From a virus, in the IMG/VR virus record IMGVR_UViG_3300046332_000238, positions 40,720 through 104,719 of that record: a stretch of 64,000 nucleotides of DNA, one strand, 5' to 3'. Of this stretch, positions 13,360-27,797 are shown piece by piece (the stretch's first letter is position 1; each line of letters begins with the position of its first letter). The position numbers were made by a program, and so were the translations under genes. The notes beneath the pieces are model-generated. The model was given only the letters and a program-made list of their open reading frames with translations, did no database searches and was not told the origin of the DNA.

Positions 13360-13362
13360 AAA

Positions 13363-14022
13363 TTAATATAAAATACACCAATTTTTATATGTCCTTCCTT
13401 TGTTAATAATTTCAGAAACACCACTTTTGTTTATATTGTAACATTTATAAAATACCCATCGAGTGCATTTTATTAATTCACCAGTTTGTATATTGAAAAA
13501 ACTATAAACTAAATTATCGAAACGTGAATTATTTTTAAAACTGTTATTTTTTAATTTGGCTTTTTCTGAACGAATTAATTTTAATTTATCCGACTTTTCT
13601 TTACCATATAATTCTTCGTATGATTTATTTTTGAATTTTTTTATTGCATTTTCTGATAATTTTTTCTTAACTTCGTTCGTGTGTGTTTTCCCGAACATAC
13701 CATTTAATTCACCACACAATGTTGGACCCCTTTTTCCACCTGGAACTGTATTATAACCACCAACAATTGAATCATATTCACTGATGAAATAAGATTCCAT
13801 AACATTTAGTGTATGGTCTTTTTCTTTAGATTGATATAATACTTCCCATATAAAATTATTCCATCCATATTTTTTTATGGCATTATAGAATTTTATATTG
13901 TTTTCTTTTTCTGATTCTCGTTTGTGGTCGGTTTTTCTTTTTGGCCAATGCGAATCAAAACCTATGTATCGTTGTTTTGTTACAACATTGTAAGCGGAAT
14001 AGATTGAATATATAGTTGACAC
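13363..14022 (-). CDS. GIY-YIG homing endonuclease (Seg-like, NUMOD3)
   Basis: IYSIY...YIG, E..FI.EY...GYN...GG, NGMFGKTHT; antisense to the operon; very AT-rich. Confidence 0.85.
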   Translation of the reverse strand: MSTIYSIYSAYNVVTKQRYIGFDSHWPKRKTDHKRESEKENNIKFYNAIKKYGWNNFIWEVLYQSKEKDHTLNVMESYFISEYDSIVGGYNTVPGGKRGPTLCGELNGMFGKTHTNEVKKKLSENAIKKFKNKSYEELYGKEKSDKLKLIRSEKAKLKNNSFKNNSRFDNLVYSFFNIQTGELIKCTRWVFYKCYNINKSGVSEIINKGRTYKNWCILY

Positions 14023-14044
14023 AGCTGTGTCCTTGTGATATAAT
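14016..14044 (+). promoter_or_regulatory. consensus sigma70 promoter embedded in the endonuclease start/leader
   Basis: TTGACA 14016-14021, 17 nt, extended TGn-TATAAT 14039-14044. Confidence 0.8.
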
Positions 14045-14097
14045 TTGACATAGAGTGAGTAGATGTTGACGCATCGTGACTCACATCCCTATTTATA
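14023..14097 (-). ncRNA. conserved structured leader, copy 1 (late promoter + two hairpins)
   Basis: TATAAATA gggat GTGAGT cac GATG cgtcaa CATC t ACTCAC tcta TGTC...GACA cagct GTG; compensatory changes relative to copies 2 and 3. Confidence 0.7.
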
Positions 14098-14113
14098 TAT
14101 TATGGAGAGTATT

Positions 14114-15085
14114 ATGTCTCAGAAAGGTAAAAAGGTCGGAAGCTTGCGTATTGCAATTGCTTCCGACCTGTAGCTGCATTTGGAGTTTGGTGACCTTGAT
14201 TTGCATAATACAGATAATGCTGATGTGCTGATTCTTGGTGGTGATATTTTTGTCGCTAACGACCTTGTGAGTCTTGAAGATTCCATTGAAATTGCAAAAC
14301 TGGTACCAACACGAGCTCGTTTTCGTGCAGAGAAATTTTTTGATTTTGTAAAACGTTGCAGTGATCGGTTCCCTAAAGTAATTTTGATTGCTGGTAATCA
14401 TGAACATTATCATGGTGAGTTTCAGGATACATACAAAACAATCAAGAAAACCTTTAAAGAATTTACCAATGTGTATGTCTTGGATAAAGAATCGGTAGAA
14501 CTTGATGGCACCATTTTTGTTGGTGGTACATTGTGGACTGATATGAACAAAGAAGATCCAATGACCATTCATGCAATTTCTGGTATGATGAATGACTTTA
14601 ATTGTGTAACAAATGGCATAACACACCGTAAAGTGCCACTGTATAAAAAAGATGCATCGGGTGAATACATCATTGATGATAAACGTATTGGTTACATCGT
14701 AGATGGTTTTAAAATGAAAGAAGAACCTGCTAGATTTACTCCTAACCATGCGGTGGAAGACCACAAACAATTTCTTCAATATTTGAAACTAGTAATGGAA
14801 AATAACACAGATAAAAAACCTGTTGTTGTTTGTTCTCACCATGCACCAAGTCGTCGCAGCACACATCCAAGGTATGCAGGACAAACCCTGATGAATGGTG
14901 GATATAGTTCTGAATTGGACGAGTTCATTATGGATAGGCCAGATATCAAACTCTGGACTCATGGACATACACATGAACCTTTTGATTATATGGTTGGTGA
15001 TACTCGTATCGTTTGCAATCCTCGCGGGTATAAAAATCATGAAAAGAGTGCAGATTATTTTGAGTTAAAATTTGTTGAAATTTAA
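14114..15085 (+). CDS. calcineurin-like metallophosphoesterase interrupted by an in-frame TAG at 14171-14173 (candidate ribosomal hop)
   Basis: GGAG RBS + ATG 14114; SDL*LHLEF, GD, GNHE, HH, GHTH motifs; the track ORF from 14180 lacks the DxH motif. Confidence 0.85.
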
Positions 15086-15094
15086 GGAGATAAA

Positions 15095-15547
15095 ATGAGT
15101 GTTACAATTAAGAATTTAGAAGCAGCATTTGCTGGTGAGAGTCAAGCACATACCAAGTACCGATATTTTGCTAAGATGGCAAGAGCACAAGGATTTGAAG
15201 ATGTTGCAAAACATTTTGAACATACAGCAGAACAAGAACTACTTCATGCGTGGGGTCATTTGGAATTACTGATTGGTAAACCAGATGTTAAACAGTGTCT
15301 TGAAATGGCCATTGAAGGTGAGACACACGAGTTCACTACAATGTATCCTACAATGCAATCAGAAGCAATTGCAGAAGGTGATGAATTTGCTGCGAAAGAA
15401 GCAGCAGATCAAATTTTAGAAAGTAAAGAACACGCAGAACAATTTGCAACAGTTCTTGCTAAGGCAGAAAAACGTTTTAATGCTTTGAAGAAAGTAGAAC
15501 AACGTCACGCAGAAGCTTACACAAAAGTATTGGAGAATGTAAAATGA
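15095..15547 (+). CDS. rbr: rubrerythrin (diiron ferritin-like domain)
   Basis: NLEAAFAGES.A..KY, E..HA, AIEGE..E...MYP, E..H. Confidence 0.9.
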   Translation: MSVTIKNLEAAFAGESQAHTKYRYFAKMARAQGFEDVAKHFEHTAEQELLHAWGHLELLIGKPDVKQCLEMAIEGETHEFTTMYPTMQSEAIAEGDEFAAKEAADQILESKEHAEQFATVLAKAEKRFNALKKVEQRHAEAYTKVLENVK

Positions 15548-15678
15548 GCGAAACACATGTATGTGTAGTATGTGGTCATGAACATGATGATCTAGTAGAG
15601 GGTGCATGGGGTACATTACCTGACGACTTTACTTGTCCTGAATGTGGTTGTGGTAAGGAAGAATACGAGTCAATTTAA
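15544..15678 (+). CDS. rubredoxin (44 aa, not in track)
   Basis: CVVCGH...LPDDFTCPECG; ATGA overlap with rubrerythrin. Confidence 0.9.
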   Translation: MSETHVCVVCGHEHDDLVEGAWGTLPDDFTCPECGCGKEEYESI

Positions 15679-16028
15679 TGTCCAAAAAATTATATCTTGT
15701 TGAAACTATTTCCACATTCCGTATTCGTTATGTGGTTGAAGCAAAAGAAGAAGGTCATGCTGAAGATGAAGTCACTATGTCTGATGCTGACTTTTATGAA
15801 TTCTCACAGAAACATATTGATGAATCGATTACATCAACCCGTGAATTAAGTAGGATTGAATATCTTGATCTTTTTGATAAAGACAATGAGTATCTTTCTA
15901 AATGGGACGATGAATCTAAAATGAAGTTCATCAATAAGATTAATTATGATGAAGATGATGGTAACGTAAATCTTCCTCCTACTGAATGTGAGTTTGATGA
16001 AATTGAAGAAGCAATGAAGAACGTATGA
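15678..16028 (+). CDS. hypothetical acidic protein
   Basis: TAATG coupling. Confidence 0.75.
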   Translation: MSKKLYLVETISTFRIRYVVEAKEEGHAEDEVTMSDADFYEFSQKHIDESITSTRELSRIEYLDLFDKDNEYLSKWDDESKMKFINKINYDEDDGNVNLPPTECEFDEIEEAMKNV

Positions 16029-16873
16029 AGAAAATATTTATAACTGGTATCAATGGTTATATTGGTCAACACCTCTACCATCTGTTAAAGGATGAGTATG
16101 AGGTGTTTGGCTTGGATATTACACCTGTTGATGATGTTAATCTTTTTCAGTCGGATATTCGACATTGGATACCAGATTATATATTTTCTTTGGCTGATAT
16201 GCCAAATGAATTCGATGCAGTCATTCATTTGGCTGCATTGATTCGTGTAAGTGAATCAGTAGTAAAACCTATTGAGTATTATGAAACTAATATCATGGGC
16301 ACCATCAATGCACTGAGTTGCATTAAGACAAAAAACTTTATTCTTGCATCTACTGGTGCAGCAGAAAACCCAATTAATCCATATAGTATCTCGAAGTTGG
16401 CCGCAGAAAGTATTGTTAAACAGTATTGTGCCAGTAAAGATATTGACTATACTATTTTTAGATTCTATAATGTAATTGGATCAAACGGATTCTTACCAAC
16501 AAATGTTGATGGTCTGATGTATAACCTAATCAAGGCAAAAGAGACAGGTATATTTAATCTTTTTGGTCATCAATATGATACAGAAGATGGTACAGCAATT
16601 CGGGACTATATTCATGTAATGGAAATCTGTCACGCAATTAAATTGGCAATTGAAACTCCTGCGAACACTGAGGTAGAAAACCTGGGTACAGGCCTAGGAC
16701 ATTCCGTATTTGATATTGTTAATCGTTTTATGATTGTAAACAATTGTGATATTCAGGTAAACTTTAAACCTGCTCGGGCAGGTGACTTACCTGCAACAGT
16801 ATTAAAAAATGTCTCGCCATACATGAAAAAATATTATACAATAGACGAAATGTTACGATTGGAGAATACATGA
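16025..16873 (+). CDS. NAD-dependent epimerase (GalE-like extended SDR)
   Basis: TGxxGxIG, HLAA, YxxSK, RFYNV.G, DGT.IRDYIHV. Confidence 0.9.
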   Translation: MKKIFITGINGYIGQHLYHLLKDEYEVFGLDITPVDDVNLFQSDIRHWIPDYIFSLADMPNEFDAVIHLAALIRVSESVVKPIEYYETNIMGTINALSCIKTKNFILASTGAAENPINPYSISKLAAESIVKQYCASKDIDYTIFRFYNVIGSNGFLPTNVDGLMYNLIKAKETGIFNLFGHQYDTEDGTAIRDYIHVMEICHAIKLAIETPANTEVENLGTGLGHSVFDIVNRFMIVNNCDIQVNFKPARAGDLPATVLKNVSPYMKKYYTIDEMLRLENT

Positions 16874-17070
16874 AATATCTTATTGGTTTTATTGGTGGTG
16901 TTTTGCTTTCAATTGGATTGGTAGCTAACGCTGGTTTCTTTGGTTCAGCAGTTGGTGGTGCTGTGGGTGGTGCAATTGGAACATCTGGTGTTGAATCAAA
17001 AATTGATACAATTAATGCTCGTATTGAAGCATTGACAAGAGCATTGGATAGTGTTAAGGTGTGCAAATGA
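16870..17070 (+). CDS. small glycine-zipper membrane protein
   Basis: GSAVGGAVGGAIG after a signal-like segment. Confidence 0.65.
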   Translation: MKYLIGFIGGVLLSIGLVANAGFFGSAVGGAVGGAIGTSGVESKIDTINARIEALTRALDSVKVCK

Positions 17071-17753
17071 AAGTAAATATCGGACCTTATACAACTTGGA
17101 TAGGACCGTATCAGATTGCGGAAAAGATACTATTCTGGATGGACAAAGACAATGATGACCGAGTTCATAACTTTGGTCGTTGGTTGTCGGGTGGTAAAGA
17201 GAAAGATTCTCTGTTACAAAAATTATGTGTTTGGATTGAATCCAAGAAAAAACGTAAAATTAAAGTAGATATTCATGGTTATGATGTGTGGAGTATGGAT
17301 TCCACATTATCTCTTATCGTTCTTCCTATGTTACAAGAACTTCAAAAGGTGAAACATGGTTCACCAATGGTTGATGCAGAAGATGTTCCTGAGTTTCTTA
17401 GAATGACTGGTCATGAAGATTGGTCACACCAAATGGAATTCAAATTTGAAGATCATGAACAGTATGAAAAAGATTCATGGGAAATCAATATGCATCGTTG
17501 GGATTGGGTTCTTGAAGAATTGATTTGGACATTCAAACAATTACAACCTGATTATGATTGGGACGATATGTATCGTTCAGGTGAAATGGACATTCAATGG
17601 TTAGATGATCCAAGTAACTCCAACTACAAAATCATGTCTCACGGACCTAATCATACATATAAAGTTGATGATGAAGGTATGAAAAAACATCAAGACCGTA
17701 TCAACAATGGTTTGAGATTGTTCGGTAAATATTATCAAAATCTTTGGGACTAA
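17067..17753 (+). CDS. conserved phage hypothetical protein
   Basis: D.WSMD.TL..I..PML...K..KHG.P; GL.LFGKYY..LWD. Confidence 0.8.
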   Translation: MKVNIGPYTTWIGPYQIAEKILFWMDKDNDDRVHNFGRWLSGGKEKDSLLQKLCVWIESKKKRKIKVDIHGYDVWSMDSTLSLIVLPMLQELQKVKHGSPMVDAEDVPEFLRMTGHEDWSHQMEFKFEDHEQYEKDSWEINMHRWDWVLEELIWTFKQLQPDYDWDDMYRSGEMDIQWLDDPSNSNYKIMSHGPNHTYKVDDEGMKKHQDRINNGLRLFGKYYQNLWD

Positions 17754-17755
17754 TC

Positions 17756-17923
17756 ATGGCAAAATTTAAACAAGTAAAACTTATATTCACCGCAGAAATT
17801 ATGATGAATAGTAATGACACATTGGATGTTGAAGCATTGCAGACTGAATTGATTGATGCCCTAGATACAGTGAACAATAATCAATTTCTTGTAGCAGAAG
17901 AACAACTTATTATTAAAGGTTAA
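17756..17923 (+). CDS. hypothetical protein (55 aa, not in track)
   Basis: MAKFKQVKLIFTAEI...; fills the gap exactly. Confidence 0.6.
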   Translation: MAKFKQVKLIFTAEIMMNSNDTLDVEALQTELIDALDTVNNNQFLVAEEQLIIKG

Positions 17924-17925
17924 TT

Positions 17926-18399
17926 ATGACATTGAAACATCATGCAGAACGTGAATTGGATATTATTGGAATGACAGAAGATTCTGTGGAAATGGATGCT
18001 GCGATGCGTAATCACATCCTTCATATGATTGATGAATTTTCTAAAGAAGGACATTCTGGATTCTCCGCATCATATGCTATTAGTATATTATCTAAACTTA
18101 TGAGATATGAACCATTGACACCACTAACAGGTGAAGATTCCGAATGGATGGAAATTGCTAAAGAACAGACTGGTTCTAATCAAGGCACACTATACCAAAA
18201 TAAACGAGCAAGTCATGTATTCAAAGATGATACTGGTGCATATGATATCAATGGCAAAGTATTTGTCGAATGGCGGCAAGACAAAGAAACAGGTGAAGAT
18301 TATTCCTCATCATATACAAGCAAAGATTCTCGTGTACCTGTAACTTTCCCATACACACCACATACAGATTATGTTAATAAAGGTTTTGTAGAAGAATGA
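17926..18399 (+). CDS. conserved phage hypothetical protein
   Basis: FS.EGHSGFSA, PLTPLTGEDSEW, YQNKR. Confidence 0.8.
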   Translation: MTLKHHAERELDIIGMTEDSVEMDAAMRNHILHMIDEFSKEGHSGFSASYAISILSKLMRYEPLTPLTGEDSEWMEIAKEQTGSNQGTLYQNKRASHVFKDDTGAYDINGKVFVEWRQDKETGEDYSSSYTSKDSRVPVTFPYTPHTDYVNKGFVEE

Positions 18400-18641
18400 T
18401 TTCTCTCATACACTTTATAAGTTCTTCCAAACTACTCAAAGAGTCCGAAAAGACGGTAGTGATGTTGGGTGGTGAAGATGAAGCACCGGAGATGGTGCGA
18501 GCACAGCGTGACTTCTATCGTTTAGAAGTTGATTATTATAGGGTAGAAGCAATCAAATTTGGTTTCTTTTGTGCCGGTGTTGTATTGAGTGCATACCCAA
18601 TTTATTTGTTATGGAGATTATTTAATGGCATACTTGCTTAA
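18396..18641 (+). CDS. hypothetical membrane protein
   Basis: ATGA overlap; C-terminal TM. Confidence 0.65.
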   Translation: MISLIHFISSSKLLKESEKTVVMLGGEDEAPEMVRAQRDFYRLEVDYYRVEAIKFGFFCAGVVLSAYPIYLLWRLFNGILA

Positions 18642-18888
18642 AAATATTTTTGGATGGTCAAAAACTAATGGCCTAAGTATTATGGCTAATGGTGCAATGT
18701 TTGCATTGGTTATATTGTTAATAGTACCTATGTTTGCAGTGAAAAAACCAGAAGTTGAAATGAAAGACTTCAAAGATGGCATACAAAATCATTTGACATG
18801 GTCAATTAAGAATGAATGCTTTTTTGTTAAACCACACACAGATACCACAGTGTATCTGATCCGTGTACCTGATTGTGATAGAAAATAA
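18625..18888 (+). CDS. hypothetical membrane-anchored protein
   Basis: GGAG RBS, TM, paired Cys. Confidence 0.65.
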   Translation: MAYLLKNIFGWSKTNGLSIMANGAMFALVILLIVPMFAVKKPEVEMKDFKDGIQNHLTWSIKNECFFVKPHTDTTVYLIRVPDCDRK

Positions 18889-18897
18889 GGAGAAGTT

Positions 18898-19191
18898 ATG
18901 AGTTTATTTGTTGAAGTTACCTCGATTGAAAAACAATGTAAAGTTATTGTTAATATGGAACACATTGTAGAAATTGCACCACTTGCTTCTGGTGGTTGTG
19001 CATTGTTTACTATTGATAGTGCAGGTGTTGGTGCAAAAGCATCGATGCGGGTATCTGATGATTACAGTCAATTTATCCAGTTTGCTGTACAACCAGTATC
19101 TGCTGAAGATATTGCAAAACGTTTTCCTAAAGTATCTACCGAAGCAGAACCTAAAGCAAAATCACCAAAGGTAGAAATTCCTAAACTATGA
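18898..19191 (+). CDS. hypothetical protein
   Basis: AAGGAG RBS. Confidence 0.75.
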   Translation: MSLFVEVTSIEKQCKVIVNMEHIVEIAPLASGGCALFTIDSAGVGAKASMRVSDDYSQFIQFAVQPVSAEDIAKRFPKVSTEAEPKAKSPKVEIPKL

Positions 19192-19475
19192 ACGATCTCC
19201 TAACAGGGATATTTTCTTGGATTAAAGATGATTATCGGACCTACCCTTTACGTTTTCTTATTGAGCTTCTTGCTTGGGCTATCAGCATTGGTTGTAGTCT
19301 CACTATGGCGCTCACGGTACCTAATCCTCCCCTTCTTAGTATGTACCCTGTTTGGATCATTGGTTGTTGCCTTTATGGCTGGGCTGCTTACTCTAGGAAG
19401 TCTTTTGGTATGCTTGCTAACTACCTTTTGTTGGTTACCATAGATTCCATAGGACTCCTACGAATGATTAGTTGA
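19188..19475 (+). CDS. 3-TM membrane protein
   Basis: three hydrophobic segments. Confidence 0.7.
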   Translation: MNDLLTGIFSWIKDDYRTYPLRFLIELLAWAISIGCSLTMALTVPNPPLLSMYPVWIIGCCLYGWAAYSRKSFGMLANYLLLVTIDSIGLLRMIS

Positions 19476-19500
19476 CAATTAACTGTGGCCATGTTATAAT
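19472..19500 (+). promoter_or_regulatory. sigma70 promoter
   Basis: TTGACA-N17-TATAAT with extended TG. Confidence 0.75.
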
Positions 19501-19528
19501 TGTATCTCTTATATTATGAAAGTTTCTC

Positions 19529-20128
19529 GTGAATATCTTTTATCTTGACAATGACCCAGTTAAATGTGCAGAAATGCATAACGATAAACATTGTATCAAA
19601 ATGATTCTGGAATATGCTCAACTCCTTTCCACTGCTCATCGCGTTCTTGATGGCGTTTCCACTATCGGCCTTACTAGCACCGGTCGGAAAAAAACTTCCT
19701 TCGTCCTCTCCGATGCTCGGGATGCCATTCTTTATTCTGCTACTCACATTAATCATCCGTCTGCAATTTGGGTAAGACAATCAGATAAAAATTATGACTG
19801 GTTGTTTTCTCTGTTTCAGGCATTGATGGATGAGTACACATATCGTTATGGTAAAACCCATGCCTGTTCTAAACTTGAAATGTCTCTTGCTAGAATACCA
19901 CAAAATATTCCACAAAAACCTTTCACTGAACCAACACCTGCAATGCCGCCAGAAATAAAAGTACCAAAAGCAGGACCTCGTGGTCAATTGCATTATGATT
20001 CTATTGCTTCGTATAAGAATTACTATATACAAAGTAAAGTACACCTTGCCTCATGGAAAGGTAAAACAAATTCTCGTCCAGTTCCGCAATGGTTTCAAAC
20101 TGGATTAGAAAAACTAGCAGTAATTTAA
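19529..20128 (+). CDS. pyrimidine-dimer DNA glycosylase (DenV)-like family protein
   Basis: MNIFYLD.DP...A..H.DKH..KM.LE.AQLLST, TH.NHPS..W, EY..RYGK.H. Confidence 0.75.
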   Translation: MNIFYLDNDPVKCAEMHNDKHCIKMILEYAQLLSTAHRVLDGVSTIGLTSTGRKKTSFVLSDARDAILYSATHINHPSAIWVRQSDKNYDWLFSLFQALMDEYTYRYGKTHACSKLEMSLARIPQNIPQKPFTEPTPAMPPEIKVPKAGPRGQLHYDSIASYKNYYIQSKVHLASWKGKTNSRPVPQWFQTGLEKLAVI

Positions 20129-20154
20129 CTTGAACTTTATTAATAAGGAAACAC

Positions 20155-20733
20155 ATGAAATTTGTAAAAATCTTGGCAGTAGCAGCAGTAATGATGGCAA
20201 GTTCCGCGTTCGCACAGAACACTGGATATACTACGTTTGAATTCTCACAAGAAACTAAACGTGCTGATGATTCAGACAAACTCAAGGGTGGTCTAGTCGT
20301 TGGTGTGAAAACACCACAAGGTCAAGACTACAGCGTTAAATTGGAATCGAGTCAAACTCGTGTTGGTGAAGGTTCGATTTCAACTGGTTTAGAAGTTCGT
20401 GCAAAACAAAACTTTGCAGATGTTGGTTATGGTATTAAACCATACCTTGGTGTTCGTCTAGGCGAGAAAATGACTAGTGATGAACACTTTAGTCACTATG
20501 CAGTTGATGCTGGTGTAAAGTTTCCGATTGTCGGAAAACTTAGTGGAGATGTTGGTGTACGTTATCGTAATGCTTTCAATACTGTAAATGCATTTGAAAG
20601 CACACGTTACCATGTTATCGCAGCATATGCATTGACTAAGACAGATTCAGTTGCAGTTCGTTACAGCCAAGCATATGGTGATGTTGCAGAAGAAAAAGAT
20701 GCATGGCGTTTGAGTTACACACATAGTTTCTAA
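20155..20733 (+). CDS. outer-membrane beta-barrel (porin-like) protein
   Basis: Sec signal ending in AFA, alternating beta-strand pattern, C-terminal YTHSF. Confidence 0.75.
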   Translation: MKFVKILAVAAVMMASSAFAQNTGYTTFEFSQETKRADDSDKLKGGLVVGVKTPQGQDYSVKLESSQTRVGEGSISTGLEVRAKQNFADVGYGIKPYLGVRLGEKMTSDEHFSHYAVDAGVKFPIVGKLSGDVGVRYRNAFNTVNAFESTRYHVIAAYALTKTDSVAVRYSQAYGDVAEEKDAWRLSYTHSF

Positions 20734-20751
20734 TATTAAAGTATAAAGAAG

Positions 20752-20775
20752 AACTCTCCTTCATGGAGAGTTTTT
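20752..20775 (+). terminator. intrinsic terminator
   Basis: AACTCTCC-ttcat-GGAGAGTT + T run. Confidence 0.7.
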
Positions 20776-20802
20776 CACTTCTTGATTACATAAAGAAATA
20801 TA

Positions 20803-21081
20803 ATGCCAACATATCAATTCAAAAATTCAAAAACGGATGAAATTGAAGAACATCGTATGAGTTATACTGTACTCGATGAATTCAAGACAGAAAATCCACA
20901 CCTAACTATACATATTAGTGCTGAAAATATACCTATTCTTGGTGATGCCACGAGAATGAGTATTCCGGGTCACGGACAGCCACATGCAGCATTCGAGACT
21001 GGAGTAATCCAACGAATGAAGGAAACCATTCCTGGCAACACCATGTCTGGTCATAAAACGAAAGCACCGAGAGAGTGGTAA
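20803..21081 (+). CDS. FmdB-like small protein
   Basis: MPTY.F.. start; usual position upstream of phoH. Confidence 0.65.
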   Translation: MPTYQFKNSKTDEIEEHRMSYTVLDEFKTENPHLTIHISAENIPILGDATRMSIPGHGQPHAAFETGVIQRMKETIPGNTMSGHKTKAPREW

Positions 21082-21120
21082 AAACAAAAAAACTTCCTGC
21101 TTTACTAACTAGGAGTATCA

Positions 21121-21822
21121 ATGGCAACCGCAAAAAAGAAAACAGCTGCAGCTCAGGCACAAAGTCAGCACTTTTCAGTAAAAAGAATCAAACCCCTAAC
21201 AGAGAACCAAGGGAAAACGTTTGATGCATATGAGGAAGGTAATCACCTAGTATTATCTGGCTCAGCAGGTTCAGGAAAATCATTCTTAGCAATGTATCTT
21301 GGACTAAAAGATGTATTGACCGAAAATTCACATTATAACAAGATCATCATTATTCGGTCTGCGGTACCGTCAAGAGATTTAGGTTTTGTTCCAGGTTCAT
21401 TGGAAGAAAAGGCCAAGATTTACCAAGAACCATACATGAACATTGTGAATGAAATCATTGGTCGTGGAGATGCATGGCATTTCTTAATGCACAAAGAGAT
21501 TGTGCAGTTTCAAACAACCAGTTTTCTTCGTGGTTTAACATTCAGTGATTGTATCATTGTGTTTGATGAATTCCAATCTGCAACCTTCCATGAAATTGAT
21601 ACAGTATTAACCCGTGTGGGTGATAATTGTAGGTTCATGTTGTGTGGCGACTTCAACCAAAACGATCTGAATATCAAGAAAGAGAAATCTGGTTTCACTG
21701 ATATCATTCGTATTCTGGATAAATTAGAAAATATCTCACACATTAAATTTGGTATTGAAGATGTGGTGCGTAGTGGTTTCGTTAAAGATTACCTACAAGC
21801 AAAGGAAAGTTTGAGTCTATAA
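21121..21822 (+). CDS. phoH: PhoH family ATPase
   Basis: GSAGSGKS, LGFVPG...EK, FLRGLTF, DE.Q, GD..Q.D, DVVRSG. Confidence 0.92.
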   Translation: MATAKKKTAAAQAQSQHFSVKRIKPLTENQGKTFDAYEEGNHLVLSGSAGSGKSFLAMYLGLKDVLTENSHYNKIIIIRSAVPSRDLGFVPGSLEEKAKIYQEPYMNIVNEIIGRGDAWHFLMHKEIVQFQTTSFLRGLTFSDCIIVFDEFQSATFHEIDTVLTRVGDNCRFMLCGDFNQNDLNIKKEKSGFTDIIRILDKLENISHIKFGIEDVVRSGFVKDYLQAKESLSL

Positions 21823-21825
21823 ATA
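21818..21825 (+). promoter_or_regulatory. T4-type late promoter
   Basis: TATAAATA overlapping the phoH stop, 30 nt before ORF 21855. Confidence 0.7.
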
Positions 21826-21854
21826 GTAGTATCTCCAACACAAACAAATTAAAA

Positions 21855-23924
21855 ATGACAATAACATCATCAAATGTTTCATTAGATTCTATTCAAACTG
21901 AATTTGGAGGAACCAATCCAATTGACATAACCGAATATTATGCCGGTGGATTATATGTACTGCCCGGAACTACAGGAACAAATGGTCCAATACCAAGTTC
22001 TGGGCAAATTGGTTTGTCACAGTTTATAGGAACAGCTCAACCTGGTGTGACATGGACATACCAAGATGATTTGTCGAAAATAGGAACCATATGGGGACAA
22101 ACTGAACAAGTACTTGATATTGATTACGGTACTGTATTTTGTGCTGTTGGTGATTCAGGTAAAGTTGCTACTAGTACTGATGGTGTTACATGGACATATC
22201 AAGATGGATTAAGATCAACATCATGGGGTTCATCGGATGCCGTTAATGCCATTGCGTGGAACGGTACTGTATTTTGTGCTGTTGGTGATTCAGGTAAAGT
22301 TGCTACTAGTACTGATGGTGTTACATGGACATATCAAGATGGATTAAGATCAACATCATGGGGCAGTACCGTCACAGTAAATGATATTGTATGGAATGGA
22401 AACATATTCTGTGTTGTTGGATCATCCACACATGTTGCTACCAGTCCTGATGGTGTTACATGGACGTATCAATCAGGTTTAACTTCCGTAGCCAGTGGAT
22501 GGACAACACAACCAGTGCATGCCATTGCATGGAACGGTACTGTATTTTGTGTTGGTGCAGAACTTGGACATATTGCTACTAGTACTGATGGTGTTACATG
22601 GACAAATCAAAATGGACTATTGTCCACAGGATGGGGTTCAGGTACTGCGGTTTTTGCTATCACATGGAATGGAACCATATTTTGTGTTGGTGGTGCTTCC
22701 GGTAAAATAGCAACCAGCACTGATGGAGTTACATGGACAAATAGAACCAGTTTGTCTGGAACAGGATGGGGATCAGTAGATTCTGTAAGATCAATTACCT
22801 GGAATGGAACCATATTTTGTGTTGGTGGTGATAATGGCAAAATAGCAACAGGAAATTCAACAGGATCGACTTGGACATATCGTTCTGGTCTAAAATCAAC
22901 CTTCTGGTATGATAATGTTGTAAATTCTGTTTTATGGAATGGCACCAAATTCTGTGCTGTTGGTGGTGTGGCTAGAGTTGCTACCAGTACAGACGGTATT
23001 ACATGGACATATCAAGACGGATTAGCTAAATTCACAACAGTATTTGCTAATACCATAAAAGATTGTGTATGGAACGGATCCAAATTTTGTATTGTTGGAG
23101 AAACCAATCATGTTGCAACAAGTGATGATGGTGTTACATGGACCTTCCAATCTGGACTCATCACAACAATGGGTGGAATAGCAAATATCTTTAATGCCAT
23201 TGCGTGGAACGGTACTGTATTTTGTGCTGTTGGTGATTCAGGTAAAGTTGCTACTAGTCCTGATGGTGTTACATGGACAAATAGAACCAGTTTGTCCGGA
23301 ACAGGATATGGCACAGATAATTGTAATGATATTGTTTGGAACGGTACAAAATTTGTCGTTGTTGGTGGTGGAGGTAAAGTAGGCAATAGTACCGATGGCA
23401 TCTCATGGACTTATCAGGGTCAATTAAGAACAACCACATGGAATAATTCTATATGTAATGCCATTACATGGAACGGTACAAAATTTGTTGTTGTGGGTGA
23501 TGGAGGAAATGTTGCAACGGGTACAGATGGTGCTACATGGACATACCAAGGGGGTTTAAAAACGACCACATGGACTACTGGCGCAGTTTATTCAATCACA
23601 TACAATTCATCAATATTTGTAATAGGTGGTGGTGCTGGAAATCTTGCTACCAGTCCTGATGGTGTTACATGGACGGATCAGAGCGGTTTAAATGCAACAG
23701 GATGGGGTGTTAGCACTGTTTGGTCAATCACATGGACGGGTAGATTATTTGTTGCTGTTGGTGACTCAGGTAAAGTTGCTACCAGTACGGATGGTGTTAC
23801 ATGGACGTATCGAACAACATTAAGATCAACTGCATGGAGTACATCAACTGTTAACACGATTGTGTTGACGAATAATAAATTACTCATCGGTGGTTTGTTA
23901 GGCAAAGTTGCTACTTCTCCTTAA
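21855..23924 (+). CDS. virion-type beta-propeller repeat protein (putative adhesin)
   Basis: about 14 repeats of 45 aa (WNG..F..VG..G..ATS.DG.TWT); fibre-tip-like N-terminus IQTEFGGTNPI...EYYAGG. Confidence 0.75.
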   Translation: MTITSSNVSLDSIQTEFGGTNPIDITEYYAGGLYVLPGTTGTNGPIPSSGQIGLSQFIGTAQPGVTWTYQDDLSKIGTIWGQTEQVLDIDYGTVFCAVGDSGKVATSTDGVTWTYQDGLRSTSWGSSDAVNAIAWNGTVFCAVGDSGKVATSTDGVTWTYQDGLRSTSWGSTVTVNDIVWNGNIFCVVGSSTHVATSPDGVTWTYQSGLTSVASGWTTQPVHAIAWNGTVFCVGAELGHIATSTDGVTWTNQNGLLSTGWGSGTAVFAITWNGTIFCVGGASGKIATSTDGVTWTNRTSLSGTGWGSVDSVRSITWNGTIFCVGGDNGKIATGNSTGSTWTYRSGLKSTFWYDNVVNSVLWNGTKFCAVGGVARVATSTDGITWTYQDGLAKFTTVFANTIKDCVWNGSKFCIVGETNHVATSDDGVTWTFQSGLITTMGGIANIFNAIAWNGTVFCAVGDSGKVATSPDGVTWTNRTSLSGTGYGTDNCNDIVWNGTKFVVVGGGGKVGNSTDGISWTYQGQLRTTTWNNSICNAITWNGTKFVVVGDGGNVATGTDGATWTYQGGLKTTTWTTGAVYSITYNSSIFVIGGGAGNLATSPDGVTWTDQSGLNATGWGVSTVWSITWTGRLFVAVGDSGKVATSTDGVTWTYRTTLRSTAWSTSTVNTIVLTNNKLLIGGLLGKVATSP
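22126..22363 (+). repeat. 103-bp exact direct repeat, period 135 bp
   Basis: 22126-22228 = 22261-22363. Confidence 0.85.
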
Positions 23925-23945
23925 AATAAAAGAAATGAATATACT

Positions 23946-24605
23946 ATGTTTAATTATTGCCCACCTAAAGACTTGCAAGACCTGAAGTCACAAACCTTCC
24001 CTGATGGTAAAAGATATTATACATTGGAAGATGGCACTAAGTTGCCATCTGTTACCACTGTGCTTGGTGCCAAAAAGAAAGAGGGTATTCTTGCATGGCG
24101 TAAACGTGTGGGTGAAGAAGAAGCCAATCGTATCTCCAGACAGGCCACATCACGCGGTACGAACGTTCATACAATTTGTGAACACTATCTCAATAACAAA
24201 CCAGGTTTCTCTAAGGGCATCATGCCTGACGCTGTGGAGATGTTTAAGAGTATTCGACCAACACTAGATAAGATTAACAACATTCATTACCAAGAAGTTG
24301 CATTGTGGTCTAAGCAATTAGGTCTTGCTGGTCGTGTAGACTGTATTGGTGAATATGATGGTGTGTTATCTTCTATCGACTTCAAGACCTCCAAGAAAAT
24401 TAAGAAACGTGAAGATATTCTGGATTACTTTTGGCAGACTACAGCATATGCGTTGATGTATGAGGAACTGGTTGGTGTTCCCATTCATCAGTTGGTTGTT
24501 ATCATGGCAGTGGAGAACGAACAACCATTGGTATTCATTGAGAAAACTTCAGATCACATCCAAGGTTTGGTTGATGCAATTGCATATTACCGGAAGAATG
24601 CTTGA
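23946..24605 (+). CDS. PD-(D/E)XK (Cas4-like fold) exonuclease
   Basis: PSVTTVL, RGT.VH, AGRVD, IDFKTS, Q..AYA. Confidence 0.85.
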   Translation: MFNYCPPKDLQDLKSQTFPDGKRYYTLEDGTKLPSVTTVLGAKKKEGILAWRKRVGEEEANRISRQATSRGTNVHTICEHYLNNKPGFSKGIMPDAVEMFKSIRPTLDKINNIHYQEVALWSKQLGLAGRVDCIGEYDGVLSSIDFKTSKKIKKREDILDYFWQTTAYALMYEELVGVPIHQLVVIMAVENEQPLVFIEKTSDHIQGLVDAIAYYRKNA

Positions 24606-24630
24606 CAAAGTAAAATAAATAGAGTATAAT
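24602..24630 (+). promoter_or_regulatory. consensus sigma70 promoter of the tmRNA gene, with an ATAAATA late-like motif in the spacer
   Basis: TTGACA 24602-24607, 17 nt, TATAAT 24625-24630. Confidence 0.85.
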
Positions 24631-24636
24631 GTAAGT

Positions 24637-24980
24637 TAGTAAAATGGTAGTACAACTTAGTAATTGAAAGGGTGGCGACACGCCGGGGCGGTACCGGCCC
24701 GGTCCACCATAAGGAATTTATGAACTTGAAATGGTATCAAATATTATTATGCTTAGCTGTTCCAATAAACTATTTTTATTGGTTGGTGTTACATAGATTT
24801 TTTATGATGGGCCGGAAATAGTTTCGACCGACATTTAAGTATATTATTAAGCTACTCGACACAGAGAGTCGTAAAAAGTAAAAACTAGTAAATGCAAACG
24901 ATAACTCGTTCCGCCAAGTAGCCTAAAAACTACTAGCTGAGGTTTCGCAAGGTGTCCTTATAATCAAATCACCTTGCAAG
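24637..24980 (+). ncRNA. ssrA: circularly permuted two-piece tmRNA
   Basis: acceptor piece first: T-arm GCCGG-GGCGGTA-CCGGC, CCGGTCC-A-CCA ending 24709. Coding piece starts GGGCCGG at 24809 (G3.U70). Tag ANDNSFRQVA* at 24894-24926. Outer ends approximate. Confidence 0.9.
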
Positions 24981-24997
24981 AATCATGATTTTCTGCA

Positions 24998-25027
24998 TTG
25001 ACTTTTAAAGTTATTTTGATATATAAT
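24998..25027 (+). promoter_or_regulatory. sigma70 promoter of pqqA
   Basis: TTGACT-N18-TATAAT, then hairpin GTTATGTC-atttc-GACATAAC and AGGAG RBS. Confidence 0.65.
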
Positions 25028-25068
25028 ATGAGTTATGTCATTTCGACATAACAACACAGGAGAATTAT

Positions 25069-25143
25069 ATGAATTGGACTACACCAGCAGCAATTGATCT
25101 ACGTTTTGGTTTCGAAATTACACTTTATATCGCAAATCGTTGA
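25069..25143 (+). CDS. pqqA: PQQ precursor peptide (24 aa, not in track)
   Basis: MNWTTPAAIDLRFGFEITLYIANR: W..P...D.R.GFE...Y with ExxxY; strong RBS. Confidence 0.92.
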   Translation: MNWTTPAAIDLRFGFEITLYIANR

Positions 25144-25215
25144 TACATAAATAATATTATGAGTTAGAGTTCTCACTAAAAACTCAATCACACACATACA
25201 CAGTTAGGATTTAAA

Positions 25216-25500
25216 ATGTCACAACCCATGTCTCCGTTCCAGATAAGGATGGAATTGTTGAAGATGGCCAAAGAATTATTGGTCGATGACTTCAACACAA
25301 AAAAAGATGTAATTCAAGAAGTCTGGCAAACTCAAGTGGAATCTGCAAAAATTGCAGGTGCAACATCACCTCCACATCCTACATTGCCACCATATCCCAC
25401 AGAAGAAGAAATTGTAAAGAAAGCAGAAGCTCTCAATCAATTTGTTTCTCAAACCACTCCATCACCAGAAATAAAGATCACGAAGAAATCTAATTCGTAA
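25216..25500 (+). CDS. conserved phage hypothetical protein
   Basis: PF.IR.ELLKMA...YPT.EEI..KA..LN.FVS. Confidence 0.75.
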   Translation: MSQPMSPFQIRMELLKMAKELLVDDFNTKKDVIQEVWQTQVESAKIAGATSPPHPTLPPYPTEEEIVKKAEALNQFVSQTTPSPEIKITKKSNS

Positions 25501-25555
25501 TTGGAGAAAAAGAGTCTAACGTATTTTCGTTAGTCTCCAATCAACAAGGAGAAGT

Positions 25556-26050
25556 ATGATGAGAATAATCTTATCCAAAGCTTTGGCCATTGCATTATTG
25601 GTCACATTAATACCACTACATTCACAAGAGCAACCACTACCTACAACCAAACAAGTTTCAATGGCCATTCAGCAAGAGATCAATTGTTTATCTGAAACAA
25701 TATATTATGAAGCTGGTAATGAATCTTATGAAGGTAAGTTAGCTGTTGCTGCTGTGGTAATAAACAGGACAAAATCTAAACTGTTTCCATCAAGTATATG
25801 TTCTGTTGTTTATCAAAAAACAGGAAATATATATCAATTTTCTTGGGTGGGAACAAAAAAATATGTCAAAAATATATATTCTTGGGAAGAATCTCAGATG
25901 GTGGCAAAAAAAGCCTTTACAGAATCCAATATACACCATACGATACAGAAATCAAATGCATTATTTTATCACAATACATCCGTTGATCCAAAGTGGAAAT
26001 TAAAATTCATTGTAAAAATAGGAAATCATTTATTTTATTCCAAAACTTGA
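25556..26050 (+). CDS. SleB-like cell wall hydrolase (Hydrolase_2)
   Basis: CL...IYYEA..E...GK.AVA.V..NR, QFSW, IGNH.FY; N-terminal signal. Confidence 0.85.
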   Translation: MMRIILSKALAIALLVTLIPLHSQEQPLPTTKQVSMAIQQEINCLSETIYYEAGNESYEGKLAVAAVVINRTKSKLFPSSICSVVYQKTGNIYQFSWVGTKKYVKNIYSWEESQMVAKKAFTESNIHHTIQKSNALFYHNTSVDPKWKLKFIVKIGNHLFYSKT

Positions 26051-26199
26051 CAATACCAACCTTTATAAATTTTTGAACTAACTGATCCGTGATATCCAGA
26101 AACAACTTTTTTTACAGTAGAAGAACCTATATAAAACATAGGTAATTTATTACCTGAATATATAGTTAAATATGTACAGAAAATATTTGTACTTGACAT
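26035..26199 (-). pseudogene. truncated GIY-YIG endonuclease (54 aa, not in track)
   Basis: MSSTNIFCTYLTIYSGNKLPMFYIGSS...GYHGS, then runs into the antisense end of the hydrolase gene. Confidence 0.75.
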
Positions 26200-26221
26200 A
26201 GCTGTGTCCTTGTGTTATGAT
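26193..26221 (+). promoter_or_regulatory. sigma70 promoter embedded in leader copy 2, pointing to gp33
   Basis: TTGACA 26193-26198, 17 nt, TGn-TATGAT 26216-26221. Confidence 0.7.
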
Positions 26222-26272
26222 TTGACATAGAGTAGGTGGGTATTACAGTACCGTGACCTACACCTATTTATA
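26200..26272 (-). ncRNA. conserved structured leader, copy 2
   Basis: TATAAATA ggt GTAGGT cac GGTA ctgtaa TACC c ACCTAC tcta TGTC...GACA cagct ATG. Confidence 0.7.
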
Positions 26273-26304
26273 TAACAAATTTAAACTATAATGTGAAAAT
26301 CATA

Positions 26305-26526
26305 ATGCCTACAAAGAATGAGATTAGTGAATTTAGTGATACGATTGAAGAAATAACCAGTCAATTAAAGTGTACTCGATTGGATGCAATACTTCATCAT
26401 TGTGAACAGACAGGTATGGAACTTGATGTGGCATCAACGTTGATTTCTTCTTCATTGAAATGTAAGATCGAAGAAGAATCACAAGAACTGAACCTGTTGA
26501 AGAAGAAATCTAGACTGATGTTTTAA
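26305..26526 (+). CDS. 33: late-transcription coactivator gp33
   Basis: FS..IE......LDAI...C...........LIS..LK.KIE.E...LNLL; upstream of gp59/gp32. Confidence 0.8.
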   Translation: MPTKNEISEFSDTIEEITSQLKCTRLDAILHHCEQTGMELDVASTLISSSLKCKIEEESQELNLLKKKSRLMF

Positions 26527-27118
26527 AATCTGAATTTTGTTTTAGTTGTTTGCTTATCCAAGATGCACTTTTATTGTAATAAGAAGCAGCTTCACCACAT
26601 GAATTGAATGTACCATCAGGAGTTATTATTTTTTTATGCAAATAATTAGAATCTCGACTTCTGGCAGATTTTGACATGACTTTACGGCTTTCATCTGTGT
26701 GTTTTCGGCCATACATTGGATGGTTGGTTTTATCACAATAACGTTTTTTTGCTTGAGATGAAATATTATTGTTGTGTTCTGTGGAGTAACAATTTGTTTT
26801 ACCTTTATTCCATGGTGCGAATCCAATGCGTCCTTCACCACCAGTGGTTGAATTGTATCCAGATTTAAAAGAATTATATTCAGTTATAAAATGAGATTCC
26901 ATAACATTTAATGTATAATCGAGGTCTTTTGATTGATATAAAAGGTACCATTCGAAATTTTCCCAACCATGTTTACAAATTGCACGATAAAATTTAAAAT
27001 TATATTTTTTATATTTGGCTTTGTGTGAATTTTTTCTTGCTGGCCATTTAGAATCAAAACCAATATATACTTTGTTATTGATTTTATTGACACATTTGTA
27101 AATTGAATAAATAGACAT
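26510..27118 (-). CDS. GIY-YIG homing endonuclease (NUMOD3)
   Basis: IYSIYK..N..N.KVYIG, GYN.T.GGEG, PWNKG, HPMYGRKHT. Confidence 0.85.
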   Translation of the reverse strand: MSIYSIYKCVNKINNKVYIGFDSKWPARKNSHKAKYKKYNFKFYRAICKHGWENFEWYLLYQSKDLDYTLNVMESHFITEYNSFKSGYNSTTGGEGRIGFAPWNKGKTNCYSTEHNNNISSQAKKRYCDKTNHPMYGRKHTDESRKVMSKSARSRDSNYLHKKIITPDGTFNSCGEAASYYNKSASWISKQLKQNSDFKTSV

Positions 27119-27183
27119 GCTGGCATTCTCCTAAAATGTTAGAGTATGTGCGGATTGCAGTCCGGCGACATACAATTATTTAG
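27119..27183 (-). ncRNA. conserved structured leader, copy 3
   Basis: CTAAATA att GTATGT cgc CGGA ctgcaa TCCG c ACATAC tcta aCATT ttaggag AATG ccagc ATG. Confidence 0.7.
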
Positions 27184-27191
27184 GCACATAT

Positions 27192-27797
27192 ATGACAGAA
27201 ACCACTGGGTTTGAAGCTTTTTGTTTATTCCACAGTTTAAAATTGCACTTTACTGGTGATTATGATTATGTGAAATACCATGGTAAGACTAATGTTTCTA
27301 AAGACACCTTTGCAAACAGGAAAGACAAGTACACTTTCTACAAATTGTCACGCAAATATAATCTAGAGAATTTAAAAGACTTCTATATTGCAAACTTTTT
27401 GGAGAAAGATGTAAGTTGGATCGGTGATATCTCCAGTGTTGAAGGTGAAGAAAACCTCAAGAAGTGGCAGAAGCGTAGTCAGAGTCTATCATATAGATTC
27501 GAACAGGACGTTCTTGGTGTATTAAACAATATCAATTCACCTAATGAGATGTTGGTTGTGAATGATGGACAACATCCACTTCTATTGAATGAGGTAATGC
27601 AAGGAACTATTGCCATAGAAACACTGGTGATAATGAATGATATTATGAACTTCTTTCCTATGTGGAATAAGAAAATCAATGATACGATTATCTGGCCTGC
27701 ATTTAAGAAGAAGTGTGAAAAGTACCTGCCGTTCTTACACTATGATAAGAACAAATTTAAAGGTATATTAAAAGAATGTCTGGCAGAGTACGCCTAA
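27192..27797 (+). CDS. 59: helicase loader gp59
   Basis: LKLHF...YDY.KY.GK, F..RKD...F.KL; 33-59-32 synteny. Confidence 0.85.
   Translation: MTETTGFEAFCLFHSLKLHFTGDYDYVKYHGKTNVSKDTFANRKDKYTFYKLSRKYNLENLKDFYIANFLEKDVSWIGDISSVEGEENLKKWQKRSQSLSYRFEQDVLGVLNNINSPNEMLVVNDGQHPLLLNEVMQGTIAIETLVIMNDIMNFFPMWNKKINDTIIWPAFKKKCEKYLPFLHYDKNKFKGILKECLAEYA

Follow-up and report, generated by a model that had tools for sequence, protein, structure and literature searches.

The window analysed here is a stretch of 64,000 nucleotides (nt) of viral DNA (positions 40,720 to 104,719 of IMG/VR record IMGVR_UViG_3300046332_000238), and the phage to which it belongs is T4-like. The genes for gp33, gp59 and others lie on its plus strand, and antisense to them lie three genes of the homing endonuclease kind, each headed by a copy of the same structured cassette of ~85 bases, which is the subject of this work (Table 1). 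A first-pass annotation, made from the sequence alone, had described these cassettes as leaders preceding antisense GIY-YIG genes. This description held for copies 1 and 3, since PHROGs called genes 1 and 3 'homing endonuclease with GIY-YIG motif' (E = 1e-11 to 1e-22), but not for copy 2, which heads a 54-amino-acid (aa) remnant of a ~200-aa gene. The GIY-YIG family of Pfam gave no match to gene 1 and matched gene 3 only at E = 0.5, below the Pfam threshold; gene 1 also showed a weak NUMOD3 match. From the catalytic-domain match, NUMOD3 and the presence/absence polymorphism at their loci, genes 1 and 3 are predicted to be GIY-YIG-type homing endonucleases. In tblastn searches with full-length relatives of gene 2 (195–232 aa), only their residues 3 to ~52–72 were covered. 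The remainder of this gene has been lost as far as the end of the cell-wall hydrolase gene, and the cassette in front of it is fully intact. The terminal codons of gene 3 overlap the 3′ end of gp33 in antisense.

Inspection of the sequence confirmed that all three copies of the element are present on the minus strand at 14023–14097, 26200–26272 and 27119–27183, with their parts in the order that had been described. Read on the nuclease strand, this order is a late-promoter-like motif (TATAAATA or CTAAATA), 3–5 nt, a 6-bp stem, C-R-C, a 4-bp stem with a CNNNAA loop, the inner 3′ arm, one pyrimidine, the outer 3′ arm, TCTA, a small hairpin around the Shine–Dalgarno (SD) sequence, CAGC(T) and the start codon. 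The outer stems (GTGAGT/ACTCAC, GTAGGT/ACCTAC and GTATGT/ACATAC) and the inner stems (GATG/CATC, GGTA/TACC and CGGA/TCCG) differ between the copies, and pairing is kept in each of them. The core pattern was found 3 times in the window versus 0.05 times expected from shuffles. A covariance model built from unrelated copies (R1) gave exactly three matches, in the window as well as in the whole 104.7-kb contig, the next match scoring 12 bits. Two details of the first description had to be amended. What had been taken for a CRC bulge with a 1-nt bulge opposite is an R–Y base pair flanked by two bulged C's: the middle R pairs with the lone pyrimidine on the other side, resulting in an 11-bp helix with two bulged bases. 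The statement that all pairs of this first hairpin are Watson–Crick is true of the outer and inner stems, but the R–Y position of copy 2 is A·C (CAC/C) on the nuclease strand, i.e. one G·U on the plus strand. Below, the first hairpin is called P1 and the hairpin around the SD sequence P2, and their counterparts on the opposite strand are called P1′ and P2′.

Table 1. Features of the window (coordinates of the 64,000-nt stretch). For the cassettes, the strand given is the one that fits the fold. RBS, ribosome-binding site; ORF, open reading frame; RC, reverse complement.
Feature	Position	Strand	Evidence or remark
Homing endonuclease gene 1, GIY-YIG type (predicted), 219 aa, GTG start	13363..14022	-	ORF; PHROGs phrog_5123/314, E = 5e-12 to 7e-22
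Inserted unit, site 1	13365..14182 (818 nt)		blastn versus L205, 87–95% identity on both flanks; junctions
Cassette copy 1	14004..14097	+	R1, 59.6 bits; promoter scan; sequence
Copy 1: degenerate late-like motif AATATATA	within 14004..14097	+	
Copy 1: sigma-70 promoter, TTGACA-17-TATAAT with TG extension	-35 14016–14021, -10 14039–14044	+	promoter scan, 12/12
Copy 1: TAGA, then bulged hairpin P1′	14055–14084	+	followed by U-rich tail
Copy 1: RC of sense late promoter TATAAATA	14090–14097	+	
Metallophosphoesterase gene, served by cassette 1	14114..15085	+	phrog_1649, E = 8e-48
Homing endonuclease remnant (gene 2), 54 aa, MSxIYCTYLT...FYIGS family	26035..26199	-	phrog_10820, E = 2e-12
Inserted unit, site 2	26051..26292 (~240 nt extra)		remnant and cassette between cell-wall hydrolase gene and gp33
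Cassette copy 2	26185..26274	+	R1, 55.2 bits; promoter scan; sequence
Copy 2: sigma-70 promoter, TTGACA-17-TATGAT with TG extension	26193–26221	+	promoter scan, 11/12
Copy 2: TAGA, then hairpin P1′ with one G·U	26232–26261	+	
Copy 2: RC of TATAAATA	26265–26272	+	
gp33, late-transcription coactivator	26293..26526	+	Pfam Trans_coact, E = 2e-13; ~30 nt downstream of cassette 2
Homing endonuclease gene 3, GIY-YIG type (predicted) with NUMOD3, 202 aa	26510..27118	-	Pfam NUMOD3, E = 6e-6; PHROGs, E = 2e-21
Inserted unit, site 3	26527..27191 (665 nt)		nuclease gene and cassette
Cassette copy 3, main family type	27103..27184	+	R1, 79.1 bits; sequence
Copy 3: antisense late-type promoter ATAAATA (predicted)	27107–27113	+	
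Copy 3: predicted RNA start G27119 of GCUG; hairpin P2′ with anti-SD loop	27120–27142	+	
Copy 3: UAGA, then bulged hairpin P1′	27144–27173	+	
Copy 3: RC of sense promoter CTAAATA	27177–27183	+	
gp59, helicase loader	27192..27797	+	Pfam T4_Gp59_N/C; ATG 8 nt beyond cassette 3

All three insertions are absent from a nuclease-free relative, contig G001 (which holds L205), whose flanking DNA is 84–96% identical to that of the window. At site 1 the insert takes the place of 24 nt of the nuclease-free allele. It consists of the nuclease gene and the cassette, whose sigma-70 promoter points outward, together with a new ribosome-binding site (RBS), start and N-terminus for the phosphoesterase gene. 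In the relative this gene overlaps its upstream gene. Its original start, ATG AAA ATT, is found in the window stranded at 13356–13364, beside the stop of the upstream gene, and the insert supplies a replacement for it: the RBS GGAGAG, an ATG, and 10 additional N-terminal aa whose codons form the 5′ arm of a hairpin described below. In the relative, the hydrolase gene and gp33 overlap at site 2 (TAATG), and at site 3 just 2 nt lie between the stop of gp33 and the ATG of gp59 (TAA TC ATG). As judged from these junctions, the cassette is part of the mobile unit and lies at its end bordering the next core gene, or close to that end, which bears out the first-pass suggestion of a mobile-element terminus that empty sites in relatives would reveal. 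In the window, any opposite-strand transcript would run into a core gene. A separate observation concerns gp59, the first ~12 codons of which (27192–27230 compared with 36199–36240 of G001) are far more diverged than the rest of the gene (96% identical); a co-conversion tract, or a change in the target of the nuclease, would be expected to leave such divergence.

The cassette is widespread among uncultured T4-like phages. Further copies of it were collected in two pattern scans of IMG/VR, the second of which fixed the unpaired letters only and left all stem positions free. The family counts given from here on rest on at least 150 distinct copies among the IMG/VR matches listed, with at least 119 loci per scan. 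The stem-unbiased scan gave at least 150 distinct copies, and every copy listed had at least 7 of the 10 stem pairs in Watson–Crick form. Fifty diverse copies were aligned on the strand opposite the nuclease gene and analysed with RNAalifold, which returned a 5′ hairpin, P2′, and an 11-bp bulged hairpin, P1′. In P1′ standard pairs occupied 550 of 550 cells of the alignment (100%), with double compensatory changes at 11 of 11 pairs. The structure is thus real and covaries, in line with the compensatory changes noted in the first-pass annotation. Taking all helices together, 95.9% of the cells were paired; shuffles gave 71%, and sliding the partners gave no more than 46%. RNA of the antisense strand would carry, in this order, P2′ with an anti-SD loop, UAGA, and P1′ with two bulged G's and a UUNNNG loop. 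P2 encloses the SD sequence in all three copies of the window, and it covaries across the family.

The pairs that deviated from the Watson–Crick rule were distributed very unevenly. On the nuclease strand, those of P1/P1b were A·C in 32 cases versus G·U in 1 (150 copies), or 14 versus 1 when only loci from the stem-unbiased scan were counted, and those at the base of P2 were A·C in 79 cases versus G·U in none. The R–Y pair was CGC/C in 93 copies, CAC/T in 28, CAC/C in 30 and CGC/T in 0. Because an A·C on one strand is a G·U on the other, the fold is selected on the strand opposite the nuclease gene, the plus strand in the window. By this wobble asymmetry, the conserved fold belongs to the strand antisense to the nuclease gene and not to the nuclease mRNA strand, and the first-pass view of the fold as a structure of the nuclease transcript is not supported. 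The same asymmetry was observed when the upstream neighbour was co-oriented with the nuclease gene (36:0) and when it was opposite (57:0). It therefore does not come from the transcripts of the neighbours, and the fold as a property of those transcripts was rejected. In ~4 of 151 copies the hexaloop was inverted, reading TTNNNG on the nuclease strand, with the stems unchanged, and a few further cassettes had other loops, e.g. TGGGGA or TCCCCA; L106, L130, L024 and L293 are among the copies with such loop changes. The fold energy of copy 3 was −17.9 kcal/mol on the plus strand versus −12.0 on the minus strand.

The sense late promoter, (T/C)TAAATA, precedes P1 by 3–5 nt and P2 by ~40 nt. In T4, transcription starts ~6 nt after TATAAATA, and with the spacing of 3–5 nt the mRNA start is predicted at, or 1–2 nt inside, P1. 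After CAGC the family reads ATG NNT ATT TAT; on the other strand TATTTAT becomes ATAAATA, which is the T4 late-promoter core. Most copies had TAT(T/A)TA 4–6 nt after CAGC, and the third position of codon 2 was T in 77 of 81. The TATTTAT motif was found in all three reading frames (86, 15 and 12 copies), the corresponding N-termini being MxIY, MYLQ and MIFI, and it is therefore a nucleic-acid signal at a fixed distance from GCTG. This GCTG would provide the first bases of an opposite-strand RNA, with ATAAATA 5 nt before it. Copies 1 and 2 belong to a subfamily that has a longer P2 region and, on the antisense strand, a sigma-70 promoter whose −35 box is the reverse complement of the nuclease start codon region; 11 of 20 members of this subfamily scored at least 10/12. 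The occurrence of two promoter types at one place argues that transcription of the antisense strand is a selected trait. Taken together, the motifs point to a second promoter, missed by the first-pass annotation, that faces back from the first codons of the nuclease. Of 17 cases of NATAAATA in the window, 9 lay no more than 90 nt upstream of an ORF start, versus a background of 5%, and the phage has a gene for the late-transcription coactivator gp33. A three-way junction formed in read-through transcripts between late-promoter RNA and codons 2–4, as in T4, was also considered and rejected, the flanks pairing no better than shuffled partners.

The cassette was not restricted to one kind of nuclease. 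When 117 diverse downstream proteins from the matches listed were scanned with Pfam, NUMOD3 was found in 44, HNH-type families in ~31 and GIY-YIG or SegE in 11, with the I-TevI DNA-binding domain, AP2 or a restriction-endonuclease fold in a few. On the strength of these domain matches the cassette heads unrelated nuclease families and is not specific to GIY-YIG genes; thus the nuclease association that had been proposed stands, but the idea of a GIY-YIG cassette does not, since HNH-type and other nucleases are headed as well. The proposed comparison with Rfam was carried out. Rfam 15 at the gathering threshold detected in the window only a transfer-messenger RNA (tmRNA) and no match to the cassette, and at E ≤ 10 nothing overlapped the cassettes in the loci of the three copies. 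A tRNA or tRNA-like origin of the cassette was considered, and ARAGORN found none. The claim that the element is undescribed is correct in that no Rfam family contains it, but comparable hairpins in 5′ untranslated regions (UTRs) had been seen by Dassa et al. in 2009 (PMC2677866). We file the element as an RNA family new to Rfam, of a known control kind (cis-antisense/leader).

When the loci and copy 1 were compared with 50,697 phage records by near and distant blastn, no match was obtained. A consensus-like cassette query against the phage records gave one real match, in the isolate Variovorax phage V45v66; a 2025 preprint on the isolation of Variovorax phages names this phage. Its single cassette (50 bits; PV558790.1 85994–86074, corresponding to L294 1501–1581, minus strand) heads a GIY-YIG gene of 226 aa running antisense to the neighbouring genes, and 12 nt separate the end of the cassette from a gene for a uvsW-like helicase. 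The P1 loop of this copy is flipped (CGCCAA on the antisense strand) and its antisense promoter motif is degenerate. The R1 model detected no cassette in Synechococcus phage B3, Sinorhizobium phage phiN3 or Vibrio phage 2.275.O (best E = 0.49), which were chosen because they carry related GIY-YIG genes, so that V45v66 alone of the cultured phages tested had a copy.

The reading that we favour, with confidence evenly divided for and against, is that the facing promoters yield an antisense transcript that restrains the nuclease and that, in the window, also feeds the gene cut off by the insertion. The element would then be a portable, two-faced expression-control cassette that travels with the free-standing homing endonuclease genes of T4-like phages and in which two promoters face each other across ~65–75 bp. 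From the late promoter, (T/C)TAAATA, the nuclease mRNA would start at or just inside P1, and the facing promoter in the first codons of the nuclease, ATAAATA in copy 3 or sigma-70 in copies 1 and 2, would start the opposite-strand RNA. The latter could pair with the nuclease mRNA at its 5′ end and ribosome-binding region, where complementarity is complete, and this pairing, possibly with convergent transcription, would keep the nuclease level low and/or late, as RNA-OUT does for the IS10 transposase. In the window the antisense transcript would probably double as promoter and leader for the phosphoesterase gene, gp33 and gp59. Two marks of antisense control could be recognized by sequence: a putative opposite-strand promoter overlapping the 5′ end of the mRNA, and a covarying structure of the antisense strand's own. 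In the main family, represented by copy 3, the predicted RNA starts at GCUG next to the AUG and has the anti-SD in the loop of P2′. Bulged antisense stems and complementary loops suit fast RNA–RNA docking, as in CopA and RNA I. Loop flips that keep CNNNAA/TTNNNG, as in ~4 of 151 copies and in V45v66, would be tolerated by a symmetric loop–loop contact between sense and antisense RNA. What the sequences establish is the structure with its strand, the promoter-like motifs, the link with nucleases and the limits of the inserted units; the production, the endpoint and the repressive effect of either RNA are what we infer.

Several observations speak against antisense control of the nuclease. The start predicted for the sigma-70 subfamily lies just before P1′, and RNA starting there misses the SD sequence and the AUG of the nuclease. 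There is no room for a further promoter between P1′ and the ATG of the phosphoesterase gene or of gp59, and in front of gp33 the stretch from P1′ to the ATG offers no more than a poor sigma-70-like match, its spacer being 14 nt. With no other promoter present, P1′ and its U-rich tail cannot terminate efficiently in the window, and a discrete ~65-nt RNA is doubtful there; the U-rich tail is, moreover, largely dictated by the sense promoter. About half of the copies listed have a divergent ORF start within 150 nt. The invariant GCUG and UAGAG, the bulged G's and the loop letters are unexplained by antisense pairing alone, and a protein partner is possible. Single-sequence fold energies did not differ significantly from those of shuffles (z from −0.9 to −1.7), and the exact octamer TATAAATA was not enriched in the window (6 occurrences versus 6.7 expected).

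Four other explanations were weighed. The main rival, to which we assign an appreciable but low probability, sees in the cassette an outward promoter with a leader and a 5′ stabilising hairpin, a 'repair kit' that expresses only the host gene behind the nuclease and does not regulate the nuclease. It would account for the location of the window cassettes 8–30 nt upstream of core genes that before insertion overlapped their upstream genes or lay 2 nt from them, for the new RBS and start codon brought by copy 1, and for the integrity of cassette 2 beside a nuclease remnant. Other perfect sigma-70 promoters of the window head real genes, e.g. the tmRNA (promoter at 24602), and Dassa et al. proposed that invading endonuclease genes supply the control regions of the fractured host gene (PMC2677866). 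However, ~40% of the cassettes are co-oriented with the upstream neighbour, and an antisense transcript would there enter the 3′ end of a gene; yet these copies display the same asymmetry (36:0) and the antisense promoter motif (32 of 42). Nor were solo cassettes, those with a remnant, enriched beside divergent genes (5 of 9 versus 60 of 112). Control of the nuclease and expression of the neighbouring gene may coexist. The model of the first-pass annotation, in which the structure acts in cis in the nuclease mRNA, as a 5′ stabiliser or protein-binding leader together with an SD-masking hairpin, is in our view distinctly unlikely. About 96% of the P1 cells pair on the sense strand too, the promoter–P1 spacing of 3–5 nt sets the mRNA start at or 1–2 nt inside P1, P2 encloses the SD sequence, and T4-type phages are known to control endonuclease translation via RBS hairpins (PMC3014915). 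Selection on the sense strand should, however, have left the opposite of the A·C exceptions that make up almost all non-Watson–Crick pairs on the nuclease strand. This model also leaves the frame-independent TATTTAT motif and the antisense sigma-70 promoter unexplained, and no extra complementarity between promoter flank and codon region, from which a read-through-specific helix could form, was found.

An element acting at the level of DNA, either as a hairpin in single-stranded DNA or a homology block for recombination and shuffling of nuclease ORFs (PeSL-like), or in homing recognition, seems very improbable to us. Such a role would fit the sharing of the cassette by unrelated nuclease ORFs and the presence of one nuclease family beside the phosphoesterase gene in both orientations; the G·T wobble asymmetry would also suit a hairpin in one DNA strand, and PeSL motifs have been proposed to mediate shuffling in T4-like phages (PMC4122927). 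But stems that vary freely with compensation give little homology, promoters at fixed distances on both sides indicate RNA, the PeSL stem-loop lies upstream of its promoter and not downstream as here, and nothing connects a strand-specific DNA hairpin with the homing mechanisms that are known. The lowest probability goes to a strand-specific terminator or insulator, in which P1′ with its U-rich tail would halt opposite-strand transcription coming from the nuclease side. The GC-rich 11-bp hairpin followed by 5–9 T's within 12 nt (commonly ACTTTTATTTAT) has the appearance of one. In the absence of another promoter downstream of P1′, though, it would block gp59 and the phosphoesterase gene; the conserved bulges and loop letters are unnecessary for termination, a simple terminator scan made no call, and most of the T-richness comes from the sense promoter read in reverse complement.

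In architecture the closest known system is RNA-IN/RNA-OUT of IS10/Tn10, and in biology it is the late-promoter/RBS-hairpin control of T4-type phages. IS10 likewise has facing promoters at the 5′ end of a selfish gene and a short structured opposite-strand RNA perfectly complementary to the translation-initiation region of the mRNA, and its antisense control is a copy-number-dependent brake (PMC5006887). Unlike IS10, the cassette resides in lytic T4-like phages, at homing endonuclease genes, with promoters of the T4 late type or sigma-70; the overlap is ~65–75 nt with two hairpins, there is no sequence relation, and here the antisense control is a prediction from sequence. In T4-type phages the late promoter lies in the 5′ strand of an RBS-sequestering hairpin that late transcripts escape, as at I-TevI, Aeh1 mobE, segB and gene e (PMC3014915). 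Both systems have a late promoter immediately in front of a homing endonuclease gene and a hairpin in which the SD sequence takes part, and both probably serve to limit nuclease expression. In the cassette, by contrast, the late promoter precedes both hairpins, the wobble pairs place selection of the fold on the other strand, and a second, predicted promoter faces back. The distinction from hairpins of the I-TevI and gene e type drawn in the first-pass annotation, that the cassette lies downstream of the late promoter, was confirmed.

Comparable hairpins were reported by Dassa et al. (2009, PMC2677866), who found TATAAATA hairpins with two mutually complementary motifs in the 5′ UTRs of metagenomic 'fractured gene' endonucleases, both GIY-YIG and others, with one locus keeping the hairpin after loss of the endonuclease, and who read the hairpin as a sense-strand translational attenuator. 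Those hairpins also come from metagenomic T4-like phage contigs, lie upstream of the start and contain TATAAATA and complementary motifs; in contrast to the present analysis, covariation, strand asymmetry and a facing promoter were not part of that report. Compared by description only, they are probably the same element seen in part. The PeSL elements combine a near-perfect sigma-70 promoter, a stem-loop, an SD sequence and a start codon and are repeated beside variable or mobile genes, and copies 1 and 2 resemble them on the plus strand; in PeSL, the stem-loop comes before the promoter and terminates transcription of the upstream gene (PMC4122927). Unlike PeSL, the cassette has the promoter first, then the stem-loop and then SD and start, it has conserved bulges and a conserved loop, and it is tied to nuclease genes and a facing late promoter.

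Homing endonucleases are the main mobile elements of T4-like phages. The control known for them depends on a late promoter within an RBS hairpin, and according to a 2010 review T4 had no characterised small regulatory RNA (PMC3014915). If the antisense reading is true, the cassette would extend the biology of phage selfish elements by a layer of antisense RNA, account for the first codons shared by unrelated nuclease ORFs and supply a portable regulatory part. As the empty sites show, a gene interrupted by such an insertion can receive from it a promoter, a ribosome-binding site and a start codon. Since the cassette is present in an isolated phage, V45v66, the question is directly testable.

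The phosphoesterase gene beside copy 1 is interrupted shortly after its start. From the ATG at 14114 it reads ...LRIAIASDL-TAG-LHLEFG, the in-frame TAG (14171–14173) standing between two CTG codons within the D-x-H motif. Eighty relatives read M(K/R)IA..SD(I/L)HLEFG without interruption, and a skip of 6 nt restores SDLHLEFG and the metal-binding D-x-H motif exactly. A 10-bp hairpin (14134–14143 with 14159–14168) ends at the take-off codon. The same break was found in five further contigs (L285–L289), the enzyme bodies of which are only 42–75% identical, as CTT TAG CTA (three contigs), CTA TAG CTA and CTT TAA CTA. Each break is accompanied by a 9–10-bp hairpin that ends at the take-off codon, with compensatory changes between contigs, by a cassette-bearing nuclease gene directly upstream in either orientation, and by an intact downstream ORF of 248–303 codons (ratio of nonsynonymous to synonymous substitution rates, dN/dS, between them 0.16–0.36). 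Reassignment of TAG was rejected: TAG ends 4 long ORFs of the window, and at the corresponding position one relative carries TAA; this stop-to-stop change together with normal use of TAG argues against a reassigned codon. On these features CTG-TAG-CTG is a candidate for a conserved natural stop-hop. In three of the contigs the same GIY-YIG family (69–71% nt identity) was observed together with its cassette in the opposite orientation (L286 6800–7670, L287 7418–8215 and L285 7436–8675), and the nuclease module can therefore be inverted with respect to the hop module.

Known stop-hops come from synthetic constructs only, no natural one having been known at the time of a 2016 review (PMC5009743), and the bypass family of gene 60 is confined to topoisomerase genes with MobA (10.1101/2022.08.31.505936). 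With these systems the phosphoesterase break has in common a gap initiated at a stop, matched take-off and landing codons and an adjacent hairpin and, with gene 60/MobA, a gap that arrived with a homing endonuclease in the probable target of that nuclease. Unlike in gene 60, the gap is 6 nt and not 50 nt, the gene encodes a metallophosphoesterase and not a topoisomerase, and the preceding peptide has only 19 aa. It is possible, though we would sooner doubt it than accept it, that in T4-like phages of soil and water the free-standing homing endonuclease genes move within a self-contained module. In it a dedicated small antisense RNA gene between facing promoters would brake the nuclease by copy number or time, and this would be the first regulatory antisense RNA family known for T4-type phages and for homing endonucleases; at some targets the module would also carry a stop-hop patch that grants immunity to cutting and keeps the host gene translatable.

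At 24598–24978 on the plus strand, the window encodes a permuted (two-piece) phage tmRNA, which matched Rfam tmRNA_permuted with 99 bits and alpha_tmRNA with 59 bits and was not called by ARAGORN. Directly upstream of it lies a perfect sigma-70 promoter, TTGACA-17-TATAAT, at 24602–24630, and another, TTGACA-17-TATAAT with TG, was found at 19472–19500 on the plus strand. The presence of such consensus host-type promoters suggests that they serve as early promoters of the phage.

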